From Eledone cirrhosa (lineage: Eukaryota): 64,000 nt of DNA. The translations under genes and the position numbers were made by a program. Below the pieces are notes generated by a model, which ran no database searches, had not been told where the DNA came from, and worked only from the letters and a program-made list of their open reading frames with translations. Location of the stretch: NCBI GenBank assembly GCA_964016885.1, contig OZ024743.1, positions 315,022,001 through 315,086,000 on the forward strand. Reading direction: 5' to 3'. Of this stretch, positions 23,506-61,744 are shown piece by piece (the first letter of the stretch is position 1; each line of letters opens with the position of its first letter).

Positions 23506-24310
23506 AATGTTTCTTGAGTGAGACGGAAGCCGGTCGGAGTATTGCTTAAAGCTTTCTCTGTTATTGTATTAAATATTATACTCTTGATTTGGCCAGGGAT
23601 GAATATTTCCAGATACTTTTTAGGTATGACTTTCCGTATTTATTCTTTGTATGAAATATTGATTGTTCTTCCGGTATCTTATCTCTGTTTTTAGCCTAAG
23701 AAAATACCTATATACGTGTATAAATAATACATGCATATATTTTTTTTTTTTATATCCAATTGAGTTCTCCAAGCATGGTTAAAATTATTGAAAGAATTAA
23801 TTGACCCGCGTGCATATTATTTTATTATTTTATGTTTTGCGATGACCTCCCCTTTCCGCTTGATGGCAGTGTGAGATTTCTCATTGTGAGACTGCTGGAA
23901 ATTCAAATGTGGCGGTCATTCTAGCACGGAGGGGTATCATCGCTGAACATTAATATCGGTAAGGTTTTTTTTATTTTTTTTTTTATATCGATATTTGTCG
24001 AGCATCCACTGATGATTTATAAGTGCCCACCTACATATATTCCTACGGACTATGTGTAGGCTTCTACATAACCTGGACATTATTTTCCCAATTTGTAGAA
24101 AACTTATAATGAAACAATCGTTTGGAAAGAGAGATGTATTTTAATTATGTCTCATATAAAATAATACAACTGGCTATCCGCAAAATACGTATAGTTAGCA
24201 CCCCAAACGTATAATTGGGATTATACTAAGGTATATCCTAATGTTTGTTGAGTGAGACGGAAGCCGGTCGGAGTATTGCTTAAAGCTTTCTCTGTTAATG
24301 TATTAAATAT
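23506..24310 (+). mobile_element. Non-coding ~734-bp unit plus ~70-bp terminal direct repeat with one hammerhead (retrozyme-like), in (TA)n
   Basis: ttgagtgagacggaagccggtcggag at 23514 and 24248; hammerhead at 24005-24126; no ORF. Confidence 0.75.
24005..24126 (+). ncRNA. Type I hammerhead with long branched stem II
   Basis: TCCA-CTGATGA-T-TTATAAGT[two hairpins]ACTTATAA-T-GAA-ACAATCGT-T-TGGA. Confidence 0.75.
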
Positions 24311-24764
24311 ATATATATATATTGTTATGCTTTGGGAGGGTCATGTTGCTAATAAGAAATACACGCACCAATCGCTTTCACTCCAATTTATTATAAATTA
24401 AATTCATAAATTTAAGAATTAATAAATTTCCGGTTGGTTGGTTGGTTCCACAACCGGACGGTTGTTCATATATTGTCAAAGTTATTTCGTCACACATTCT
24501 GTGACCTCTTCAGTGACTGGGGATTCTTTTCTTTGTTTTTGTGCCTCTCCTTTGTTCTGTCCTACGCCATTTTATTTCTGTGTGTGTTGTGTGCTTAGTT
24601 TGCGCATGTGTTACATCCGGGTGTATGTGTGTGTTTATATTTGTTTATTTATTTGTTTATTTATATGTTACTGGTTGGTTGTTAGTTCTATGTGTGTGTG
24701 TGTGATTTCATTTTGTCCTTAATTGTAAGTTGTGATGTTGCTATTCCATTCATGTTTTCTATTT

Positions 24765-26440
24765 CGCAGAATCAGCGAAAGTAACCGTTATAGGGACCTA
24801 ACAAACTGTATAATAGGCAGTATGGATGTTGTGTCCCTATATCCATCCATTGACGTGGATTTTTCTGTGGAGAAATGCGTAGAAATGATCAGTGAGAGCA
24901 ATGGTGTATTCCGTCGGATTGATACCAGTGAGCTGGGACTCCTACTTAAACCTACCTATAGTAATGATTGTCTATATACATATGACCTTAGCAAGACCAG
25001 CAAGAGGCAGACCACTTACCATTACCTCAATGGCCAAGAAATCCCACACAGATAGATGGGACGGGTGGACCAGAGCCATACAAACCCGCGAAAACTACAT
25101 GCGGTGGGAGCCAGTATAAAATTAACCCTGAAGGAACATATGTTCAAATTTCTATGGAAAACATATGCCCAAGAAGGGGGAGCAGCCATTAGTGTTAGCA
25201 TTGCAGGTGACATAGCTAACCTATTCATGGTATGGTGGGACAACAGACTTAAACTTAAAATTAAAGAACAACTAGAAGACCCCTTAACCCTGATAATGTA
25301 CTCCCGCTACGTTGATGATATAAACATCGTAGTTAAAGCACCCCCACTGGAGAACAGTCAGGAATTAGAGAAAAACACAATGGAAAGCATCCAGCAAATA
25401 GCTAATTCCATCCACCAGAGAATAGAGTTACTATAGACTACCCAAGCAAACACCCCAACCATCGATTACCTGTACTAGACACAGAGCTCTGGTTAGAAAC
25501 CATTAATAACAAAAAACAAATCCTCCATTCCCATTATGCCAAACCCATGACTTCCAAATATCTGATCCACCGAAACTCAGCTGTTTCGGACCACACCAAA
25601 ATCAACATACTGATTGACGATTTAGTAGGGGTGATGAGAAACGTGTCCCGCATGTGCAACCCCAAAGAACTAGAGAGACGCATACAACACTTCATACACC
25701 GTATGCAGTTCTCTGGTTACAATCAGAGAGATACAATCAGAGTATATAGAGGAGCCAGAACCAAATGGGAAAAAATGGTAAATAATGATACAAATGGGGC
25801 CTGCCCCATGTATAGGGGCAAATTTTGGAATAGAATAGAAAGAACTAGGAATAAGATTAATAGAATAAACTCATGATATGATAGCAATAAATACCAGAGT
25901 GTAATGTTCATCAATACAACCCCTAGAGGTGAATTAGCTTACAAATTTAGAAGGGCCCTAGATAAACATAAACTCAATATTAAGATAGTAGAAAGACCAG
26001 GTACCTCCATAAAAACACTTATTAGCAATACATACCCTTACCAAAGACCTCCCTGTATAGATAATAAATGTATAATCTGTAAACTAAGCCCCCATATTAA
26101 CTGTAAAACTAAAAATGTAGTATATAGCATAAGATGTACTGAAGGACAATGTAGATATAAGAATATAGTGTACATAGGTGAGACAGATCGTAGTATATGA
26201 GAACGGATAAATGAACACTGGCGAGAGCTTCAAGATAGAAAAGAATCATCTGTACTCCACCAACATGCTTAAATAGAACATGAGGGTACATTAGAGAACA
26301 TAGAAATAAAAATAGAATCTACACACAGAAAAGACGCAATGTCTAGACAAATCACAGAGGCAATAAACATAAATGAACTCCAATTAAAATTAAATAGAAA
26401 ACATGAATGGAATAGCAACATCACAACTTACAATTAAGGA
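24765..26440 (+). pseudogene. Disrupted PLE RT + GIY-YIG coding sequence
   Basis: SMDVVSLYPSI, YSRYVDDI, LPVLD, KPM, NVVYSIRC...VYIGETDRS.*ERINEH, RQITEAINI...LNRKHEW across frameshifts and stops. Confidence 0.85.
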
Positions 26441-60400: not shown

Positions 60401-61437
60401 GCCACGTAAGAGCACAATAGTGTACTAACACTATAGTAAGATACGCTGCAACTAGACTGATTTTTGTAGCAGTATGCTATTTGAAGCCTATGACAATGCA
60501 AAGTGGGTGGTAGGTTTCGGAATTTATTGAAGACCACAAGGTTATTGGTGTCACATTTTATAAAATGAGAGGTGATACACTAACACCTTTGTTGCCTTCA
60601 GTTTATTCCCAGATCTCCAGTCCATTTTGCACTGTCGTAGACTTCAAATAACATACTGGTTTATTCATACACATAATGCTCCAAGCAATCATCAACACAC
60701 ACTTGTTCTTTTTTTTATTTCATTTAAGACTATAAAGTATGCTTTAAAAGAAATTTATTTGGAAATTCTACACGTTCAGTAACACGGACAGACAACCACT
60801 TTAACTTACACGAAGAAGATTTCCACATTGGCTCACGTGTAAGGAGCGCTTCAGTGTCTCACATATACGGAGACCATCATCCGCACACCTAGAAAATAGT
60901 CATTGAAGCAGACAGAGAAACCTAAATAAAATACTTCATACGAAGGTTGATTTAGATATTTCAAGGGAAATTATTCTACAAAAAACATCATACTATATAT
61001 TATATATTTAATACCTAACATTGATATATTACATATGTTATATAAAAAAGAGGTGTATGTATGTGTGACTATAATACGTTTTACTCTATGTTACATTGCA
61101 TTGTATTCATATTGGAAAAACTATACAAAACATTTCAGATGAAACATATATATTTATTTATATGTTTGATAGATGAGACAATCTAAGAAATATAATAAAT
61201 ATGGCATTCCATTTCTCTCTGGCTCCTCCAGCATACCATTAACTAATATCTAACAAATTTAAATGTGTACACAACTGAAAAATGTCACAGAATCGTGTAT
61301 ATCCAAATATATATACGTTTATACATACATATATATATATATATATATATATATATATATATATATATATATATTGTGTGTGTGTCTGTGTGTGGGTGCG
61401 TGTATATATATATACAGGTATATATATATATATATAT

Positions 61438-61744
61438 GAACAATGGCGTGGTGTTTTGTTGCGAGTGTGATACATATGAATGAAAATACACCGAGAAACG
61501 GGACTGTCCATCTTCAGTGGTCCTACTGACTATCATTGGTATTTCTTCACATTAAAGACCAGATACCTCAAAATCAGTGCGAGCAATAACTAAAAAAGTT
61601 ATTTCAGTTCTGTCCCAATAACTTATTTAAGTTATTACTTGCACTGATTTTAAGGTATCTGGTTTTTATGCGAAGAAATACCAATGAGAACAGCAGACCA
61701 CTGATGATGGACAGTCCCGTTTCTCGGTCTATTTTCATTCATAT
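61438..61744. mobile_element. PLE-type hairpin with tail and half-hammerhead motif
   Basis: Arms ~61474-61605 and ~61618-61744; tail 61438-61473. Confidence 0.75.

Follow-up and report, generated by a model that had tools for sequence, protein, structure and literature searches.

A doubled, bulged hairpin just downstream of the insertion ends of Hydra-clade Penelope-like retrotransposons

We analyzed a 64,000-nt stretch of the genome of Eledone cirrhosa (GCA_964016885.1, contig OZ024743.1, positions 315,022,001 to 315,086,000 of the forward strand), hereafter called the window and numbered from its first letter. The window is AT-rich animal DNA with abundant (TA)n arrays, and self-BLAST after microsatellite masking revealed many fold-backs and short direct repeats. 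These repeats in (TA)n are Penelope-like retrotransposons (PLEs), and the "short end" and extension recognized in the initial annotation are the known PLE end and its one-sided tail, which has been described previously (PMC8557442, PMC3846280; statements on cited papers refer throughout to the parts of them available to us). The annotation had also pointed to an RCTC(...GAGY) motif following the short end in several families. We found that this motif is more specific than first noticed: it is a bulged hairpin, it is doubled, and each copy lies just downstream of one insertion end.

Six-frame translation revealed open reading frames (ORFs) with reverse transcriptase (RT) and GIY-YIG endonuclease (EN) sequences at 10871-13087, ~24730-26395 and 42178-43221, with further pieces in 44469-46271, and hammerhead cores are located inside the repeat arms. 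DNA transposons with terminal inverted repeats were ruled out as a source of the fold-backs, since the arms hold RT/EN coding DNA and hammerheads. None of six PLE fragments matched Pfam, so the assignment to PLEs rests on protein motifs and homologs.

A bulged hairpin conserved across Hydra-type elements

The refined motif reads RCTC, a variable stem-loop, T(T/C/A), GAGY and RCT. Its 3' half (TTGAGCACT) is conserved in sequence, RCTC and GAGY form a palindrome, and the spacer between the two halves is ~6 to 26 nt in most loci, with 43 nt overall at window position 44258. Twenty ends in the window were set solely from the repeat arms found by self-BLAST after microsatellite masking. RCTC starts 3-8 nt beyond the repeat-defined end at 10 of these 20 anchors, compared with 5.85% of background 16-mers (p = 5e-8), and it occurs in the 16 nt upstream of the end at 2/20. 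The observation made in the annotation is confirmed. Counted by family, RCTC follows the end in 8/16 (p = 1e-6), although six of these eight families belonged to the set in which the motif was discovered, so that the window test is only partly independent. The stricter form RCTC-N-T(T/C/A)-GAGY-RCT, which was refined post hoc, has seven matches in the window against 0.41 after shuffling (maximum 2). Enrichment is limited to the position after the end and to this stricter form, and does not extend to the loose pattern RCTC-N4..45-GAGY across the window (78 vs 70 ± 12 in 100 shuffles).

The letters originally reported were present at 11/11 sites, and the eight sites of the first group show no mutual alignment in self-BLAST, as had been claimed for them. 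Site by site the picture is more mixed. The GAGY partner is absent at 23580, and 44462 reads TCTC. The site at 61466 has ACTC, the inner stem and the bulge, right after which (TA)n cuts the motif off. At 30016, GCTC is present with a decayed 3' half; it is probably the second copy at a long end, and a full copy lies 106 nt upstream. At 55897, a repeat arm defining an end is absent. Further sites had been missed, at 10142(-), 29317(+), 39783(-), 61838(-), 30122/29506(-) and 10831(+), as well as 27237(+), which holds the 5' half only. The site at 10831(+) precedes a near-complete Hydra ORF, with 19 nt separating it from the ATG, and it is the top match in the window (23.3 bits) of a matrix trained on metagenome loci alone.

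The out-of-sample test of the motif was this metagenome set, not the window. It comprises 78 marine loci from the best 80 of 368 confirmed stretches, fetched with an alignment of 74 Hydra-type proteins, and represents 70 families at 80% identity. The motif was found in 38 of the 70 families, giving 67 distinct instances, in elements whose proteins are ~30-44% identical to those of the window. The two bases preceding GAGY in these instances are TT in 45, TC in 13, TA in 7 and others in 2. Outside the ORF match, 73 of 97 GAGY-RCY halves have RCTC within ~50 nt upstream, compared with 5/27 (sense) and 1/27 (antisense) in coding DNA.

Pairing was counted on anchored halves without a covariance model, because MAFFT misaligned the variable loop. 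With a 2-nt bulge, the four successive inner pairs form in 61/65, 42/59, 31/38 and 19/33 instances, against permutation means of 47.5, 23.7, 15.6 and 12.2, and several pair types occur at each inner-stem position. When the bulge is set to 0, 1 or 3 nt, the first inner pair forms in 4/67, 2/66 and 7/65, respectively. The inner stem therefore covaries only in the 2-nt-bulge register. The outer pair varies as well: most loci have G-C, most of the copies in the window have A-T, and loci L028, L031 and L054 have T-A. In the protein tree, which came from a quick unfinished search without bootstrap and covers window and metagenome sequences only, the motif is scattered, and tips labeled as lacking it are mostly those whose 5' untranslated region (UTR) lies off the contig.

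The motif can also be recognized by eye in published Hydra consensus sequences (PMC8557442 supplement), namely Hydra-2_Amil from a coral and Hydra-1_Ajap and Hydra-2_Ajap from a sea cucumber, with two occurrences in the 5' UTR of Hydra-1_Ajap. The copepod element Hydra-1_Crog has variant forms, and Hydra-1_Amil and Hydra-1_Obim show doubtful or partial forms only. Five 9-letter forms of the 3' half occur at least seven times in this 584-kb supplement, where line breaks may hide more; of seven such occurrences, four are in Hydra UTRs and three apparently in coding stretches of other clades. In viral contigs, we found relatives of neither the Hydra type nor the second PLE type described below. 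For the RCTC/GAGY version, its presence in 38 families with such distant proteins and the compensatory changes in both stems lend strong support to the proposed deep conservation of a cis-acting element.

We also compared the motif with known RNA families. It lacks the CUGANGA and GAAA core and the three stems of a hammerhead, and was rejected as part of a hammerhead or its reverse complement. A search of 15 of the 78 metagenome loci with Rfam 15 returned nothing relevant (two weak unrelated matches). In the window, none of the 150 listed among 272 Rfam matches reached the gathering score, and most were microRNA models on microsatellites and fold-backs.

Two hairpin copies and two insertion ends

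The motif usually occurs twice between the hammerhead and the ATG, with a copy spacing of 55-83 nt (n = 17). A canonical copy lies 46-74 nt downstream of the hammerhead in 17 of the 24 3' regions that continue for at least 110 nt beyond one; four of the other seven end before the copy site and three carry variants. By regular expression, 5' UTRs of at least 150 nt (n = 24) contain two copies in 15 cases, one in 4 and none in 5. The last copy ends 12-25 nt before the ATG in 20/24, and 19 nt before it in the window (10831-10871). One 5' UTR (L012:30-135) has an array of a short palindromic unit in place of the hairpins.

The junctions at which insertions end fall next to these copies. Ten contig-end self-matches, which are assembly overlaps, and the full tandem of L018 were left out; of the 12 same-contig junctions that remained, 10 were located 0-7 nt before a copy. 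Cross-locus BLAST added two junctions, one in the second element of L011 and one between L022 and L024, so that for 12 of 14 pooled junctions a copy begins 0-8 nt downstream (rough null 18/160, p = 3e-10), four of them lying before copy 1 and eight before copy 2. The cross-locus comparison gave 28 rows, of which 7 were near a copy; most of the other 21 compare different families that resemble each other only as far as the hammerhead, and do not mark insertion ends. In addition, five loci that enter TA-rich repeats stop 51-59 nt after the start of copy 1, and T at -6 and A at -5 before the motif were each found in 39/65 instances. The short end thus lies just before copy 1 and the long end just before copy 2, from which it follows that the tail is approximately as long as the copy spacing. 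Tails in the window are ~50-100 nt, and the extension is present at only one of the two terminal repeats in window and metagenome loci alike, as expected for PLE tails.

In the window, the link between the long end and copy 2 is hinted at by the F1 long ends (Table 1), which are similar to the 7 bases with which the element begins at 10815. The motif is on one arm only in 9/9 motif-bearing window fold-backs. This fits one start per hairpin in a single event, but is only suggestive, because short/short fold-backs without the motif could hide among the five unassigned ones. These five, at 32554-32663, 37689-37966, 47216-47441, 60470-60658 and 63709-63901, have neither motif at their ends; one lies within (TAA)n, and some may be symmetric short/short PLE insertions. 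Another arrangement was seen in L011:2436-2780, where a short (TA)n array is shared by two different Hydra elements that meet tail to tail, each with its long end.

Recent duplication does not account for the hairpin pair. Copies 1 and 2 of one element (mean score -1.7) are hardly more alike than copies across elements, which score -2.9 between different elements and -1.7 for copy 1 against copy 1.

PLE families of the window

The features of the window are summarized in Table 1. Among the motif-bearing families, coding DNA was identified in F1, F7 and F8, and all three show the protein features of the Hydra clade, which are an RWK-like motif, DKT, CxCX5C, CxxC/CxH and the absence of CCHH (PMC8557442). 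A single ORF with RT plus GIY-YIG at its C terminus is present at 10871-13087, with one stop, and has 194 homologs including a Hydra vulgaris protein. RWR and DKT occur in the window ORF, and RxRWKA and ADKT in the homolog alignment. The CxCX5C linker and the CxxC and CxH around E and N, without CCHH, are found in 11483-13084, in 42178-43221 and in the C-terminal piece within 44469-46271. Hammerheads in the pseudo-long terminal repeat (pLTR) and insertion into (TA)n are seen as well, with cores at 10248, 29129, 29213 and 61941, others being decayed, and partner arms ending in (TA)n. From its downstream position and its match to the F1 arm, we infer that the arm at 14449-14618 belongs to the 10871-13087 ORF; with this inferred 3' arm and a long low-complexity 3' region, the span 10815-14618 would be 3.8 kb, compared with less than ~3 kb in the Hydra clade. 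Families F2-F6, F9 and F10 are putative Hydra elements by motif and layout; their stubs lack coding DNA, and no Hydra ORF linked to them was found. Public reads from four runs mapped to 10796-13120, excluding the repeat at 10796-10826, indicated a multi-copy family with depth rising toward the 3' end, and the same runs contained relatives of this family in two other organisms.

Table 1. PLE features of the window; positions and strands refer to the window, and F1 to F10 are motif-bearing families
Feature	Position	Strand	Details
F1 fold-back and tail	10060..10411	-	fold-back 10151-10411, tail 10060-10150; copy 1 at 10142-10120; hammerhead core 10248
Motif copy 2 (GCTC-stem-TT-GAGC-GCT)	10831..10851	+	top match of metagenome-trained matrix
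Hydra-clade PLE ORF (RT + GIY-YIG)	10871..13087	+	RWR, DKT, CxCX5C, CxxC/CxH; in-frame stop 11480-11482
Probable F1 3' arm	14449..14618	+	decayed hammerhead core, short end in (TA)n; 91% inverted match to 10152-10316
Direct repeat, second version	14659..15268	+	14659-14776 / 15150-15268; TTTC...CTCG...AATT from 14779; coding link not found
F2 direct repeat	23506..24315	+	23506-23580 / 24240-24315; ACTC at 23580, decayed 3' half
Second PLE type	24319..26890	+	broken RT + GIY-YIG ORF ~24730-26395, CX4CxxC linker, CCHH; inverted arms 24319-24764 / 26392-26829; hammerhead 26639; tail 26830-26888 with TTTC...CTCG...AATT
F3 fold-back and tail	26936..27292	+	ACTC at 27237, 3' half unrecognizable
F1 fold-back and tail	29032..29400	+	fold-back 29032-29310; copy 1 at 29317-29339; hammerhead cores 29213(+), 29129(-)
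F4 direct repeat	29408..30443	-	29408-29827 / 30024-30443; full motif 30122-30094, 29506-29478
F4 decayed copy	30016	-	just past end, probably copy 2 at long end
Solo tail of the 26829 family	30490..30565	-	92% match to 26813-26888
F5 fold-back and tail	36914..37110	+	motif 37038-37064
F6 fold-back and tail	37129..37546	+	motif 37472-37499
F1-related tail fragments	39701..39851	-	motif 39783-39762
Fold-back related to second type	39903..40695	+	hammerhead cores 40384(+), 40156(-); tail from 40642
F7 5'-truncated Hydra element between inverted arms	40724..44345	+	ORF part 42178-43221 (CxCX5C); motif 44258-44307, tail
F8 fold-back with Hydra EN C-terminus	44365..46271	-	fold-back 44469-46271; variant TCTC...TT-GAGC 44462-44433
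F10 solo fragment between (TA)n arrays	55835..55975	-	minimal hammerhead-like core, then motif 55896-55875
F9 fold-back	61437..61748	-	61470-61748; ACTC 61466, inner stem and bulge, then (TA)n cut-off
F1-related fold-back and tail	61753..62175	-	fold-back 61847-62175; copy 1 at 61838-61814; hammerhead core 61941(-)

Several further observations concern these families. The F8 fold-back at 44469-46271, which represents a Hydra 3' end, is an almost perfect palindrome of 1.8 kb (98.9%) and probably a recent insertion. Rearranged pieces of F7 are located at 48073-48489, 55463-55553, 17545-17665 and 16447-16765, and the first two of these lack the motif region, an arm being fused to the distal tail. 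Beyond 30016, F4 shows additional motif-like halves (29960-29900, minus strand), among them an exact TT-GAGC-ACT ~95 nt past the end, and its copies may number three or four. Several tails (29340-29400, 37065-37110, 44308-44345 and 55835-55874) also have, close to their distal end, another small hairpin whose sequence varies.

The initial annotation had proposed two clade-specific versions of the motif, the second being TTTC...CTCG...AATT. Its letters are present at 26830, 40642 and 14779, and the element at 24319-26890 does belong to a different PLE type: its CX4CxxC linker and the CCHH in its C-terminal GIY-YIG agree with Neptune or Nematis (CX2-5CxxC linker), and the closest homolog of its ORF is an Octopus vulgaris protein (63%). 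Overall, the proposal of two clade-specific versions is only partly supported. The second version rests on two families, because the sites at 26830 and 40642 align with each other (83% over 77 nt). No common fold was found among the TTTC/CTCG sites, and no relatives of the second type were found in viral contigs or prokaryote genomes, leaving it without outside loci. The pattern has three matches in the window against 0.56 ± 0.7 (maximum 3) after shuffling, having been built from the same sites, and it matched 2 of the 78 Hydra metagenome loci. A short stretch resembling the start of the second-type tail (40642-40660) is found in the template of PAc, a Poseidon-clade element (PMC11167929 Fig. 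S1B); the likeness is weak, differently placed and possibly due to chance.

Other repeats were also identified in the window. A stub between (TA)n arrays at 28475-29001 (minus strand) has neither motif; its hammerhead-like core is followed by AATAAA and then by an end rich in T, and it appears to be a third PLE type resembling Penelope/Poseidon. Two decayed non-long terminal repeat retrotransposon-like RT elements (1-1474 and 3373-6505, both on the minus strand; RVT_1 matches) are unrelated to PLEs. Two short dispersed-repeat families (37982-38165, 48287-48408 and 50891-51070; 19229-19432, 30986-31182 and 56536-56737) are presumably similar to short interspersed nuclear elements.

How the hairpins may act

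By analogy with PAc, we predict that each hairpin in the RNA is probably a docking site that positions the element's RT to start just upstream. PAc (Frangieh et al. 2024, PMC11167929) has two internal RT start sites that match its two genomic ends, it requires RNA 3' of these sites, and both target strands are cut and extended, for which a dimer was predicted. A read-through transcript of a partial tandem would carry the hammerhead, hairpin 1 and hairpin 2 in its 3' part. The GIY-YIG domain would nick the (TA)n target. The RT would sit on a hairpin located 3' of the template start, so that this hairpin would remain uncopied, and would begin ~2-8 nt upstream of it, often at a UA able to pair with the nicked target. 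A start at hairpin 1 would give the short end, and a start at hairpin 2 would copy hairpin 1 and the spacer and so produce the tail. More speculatively, a protein dimer on both hairpins could extend both nicked strands, giving a fold-back with one short and one tailed arm.

Several points weigh against this docking model. The PAc template letters (PMC11167929 Fig. S1B) lack an RCUC/GAGY motif, so the biochemistry is borrowed from another clade. As to RNA being the form in which the element would act, stem probability is 0.61 in sense and 0.59 in antisense, and wobble counts split on the strand, since internal mismatches favor sense G-U (3 vs 0) but the outer pair has A-C five times against G-U once. 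The permutation tests of the inner stem leave shared ancestry in. Of the five 5' UTRs without a match, three have variants by eye and two (L012, L022) have none. Among the junctions, the break in L001 lies within the hammerhead, 83-86 nt ahead of a copy, L048 holds degenerate copies only, those of L017, L029 and L031 were placed by eye, and the L024 end lies 21 nt upstream under stricter scoring. The evidence for the long end at copy 2 within the window consists of a 7-base overlap at 10815 and the decayed 30016 site.

One alternative is that the hairpin is read in single-stranded DNA (ssDNA), where the GIY-YIG EN would bind a cDNA or second-strand intermediate, cut a few bases upstream and trim it to the short or long end. 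The SsnA/NTS system (Chenal et al. 2025, PMC11893778) offers the same geometry, with a GIY-YIG protein whose binding to an ssDNA hairpin flanked by conserved bases depends on sequence and shape, and which cleaves a few nt upstream. Craig et al. ascribed the tail to EN-mediated resolution (PMC8557442), the D. virilis tail is needed for EN recognition, as cited in PMC11167929, and the strand tests above favor neither RNA nor ssDNA. However, the genomic ends of PAc are RT start sites on RNA, with priming that needs no cut in element DNA (PMC11167929), and under target priming the insertion 3' end is the RT start. SsnA is moreover a bacterial stand-alone nuclease of another GIY-YIG family that acts on DNA only and has no RT, and thus provides an analogy rather than a shown relative (PMC11893778). 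We consider the ssDNA explanation unlikely, though it is the main rival.

The hairpins could instead serve the translation or stability of the hammerhead-cleaved, uncapped RNA, with ends adjoining them only through flanking TA-rich single-stranded stretches. The near-fixed distance between the last copy and the ATG would suit such a role, and in viruses and retrotransposons, cleavage by ribozymes can favor translation that does not depend on a cap (PMC13725137). Yet the entire UTR is AT-rich, and still 12/14 ends fall within 8 nt of a copy, at both copies; the equality of tail and copy spacing would also go unexplained. As the sole account of the motif this seems quite improbable to us, although translation or stability may be an added function. 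It is harder still to believe that the motif is a double-stranded DNA signal, such as an internal promoter or EN site, with the stems as a by-product. The palindrome, the conserved 3' half and the location of PLE promoters in the pLTR (PMC11167929) would agree with this, but the variable half spacing and the covariation in a fixed 2-nt-bulge register are features that a duplex-binding site would not need. Finally, chance or recent shared ancestry without function, which the frequency of the loose pattern might suggest, is scarcely credible: the motif is retained across distant proteins and across the tree with compensatory changes while the flanking UTR is unalignable, its halves pair up in UTRs and rarely in coding DNA, and junction positions, covariation and the two-copy layout already contradict such a reading.

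Compared with known systems, the elements and their tail are not new, whereas the hairpin, its two-copy layout and its tie to both ends appear to be. The Hydra clade as described (Craig et al. 2021, PMC8557442) shares the protein motifs, the absence of CCHH, the pLTR hammerhead, (TA)n targets, tandem and inverted arms and an optional tail, and four of its six new consensus sequences have the motif in canonical or variant form by eye. The available part of that paper annotates hammerheads only, without a bulged hairpin, a two-copy layout or a link to the ends, and its tails are 30-40 nt compared with ~50-100 nt here. The hairpin was likewise not found in the available parts of PMC4209133, PMC3846280, PMC7229834, PMC7761336, PMC5737381 and bioRxiv 10.64898/2026.07.22.740005, and neither it nor its doubling and tie to both ends was found in the literature searched, which left most subscription papers and older Penelope work outside its scope. 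PAc is alike in having two ends with the tail between them, internal starts, required RNA 3' of the start, an AT-rich target and extension of both strands; it starts in an AC-rich stem-loop inside the ORF, and no repeated cross-species motif is described for it in the part available (PMC11167929). In the Hydra elements studied here, by contrast, both sites are in the 5' UTR, each with its own hairpin copy. The hammerhead, 46-74 nt upstream of copy 1, is a separate element from the motif, which has no CUGANGA/GAAA core. Hepadnavirus epsilon and telomerase RNA binding elements offer a further comparison, in that the RT grips a bulged stem-loop or anchor and this structure fixes the point at which copying begins or stops; in epsilon the bulge itself is the template for protein priming, and telomerase uses a separate RNA.

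The choice of internal start sites in PLEs and the origin of the one-sided tail have been an open question since the tail was described, and one biochemical study mapped two starts, not the signal. A clade-wide hairpin 0-8 nt behind each end turns this mechanistic question into a direct and cheap experiment, and gives curators a rule for Hydra element boundaries and for the detection of non-coding stubs. A bolder proposal, which we put forward as a possibility that may well prove wrong, is that twin RNA docking hairpins recruit two RT subunits as a dimer, and that each subunit begins a fixed few bases upstream of the hairpin it occupies, the two acting on opposite nicked strands of the (TA)n target. 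A single event would then write the asymmetric inverted repeat, with the tail equal to the hairpin distance; with a portable signal of 25 nt, a telomerase-like RT could be made to start at any internal point of an RNA, and other PLE clades would have twin signals of their own, TTTC...CTCG...AATT perhaps among them. Telomerase and PLE RTs are sister groups (PMC8557442), and how PLE RTs grip their RNA thus bears on the origin of RT-anchoring RNAs. If the hairpin is portable, it would also be of interest for RNA-templated gene insertion into (TA)n.

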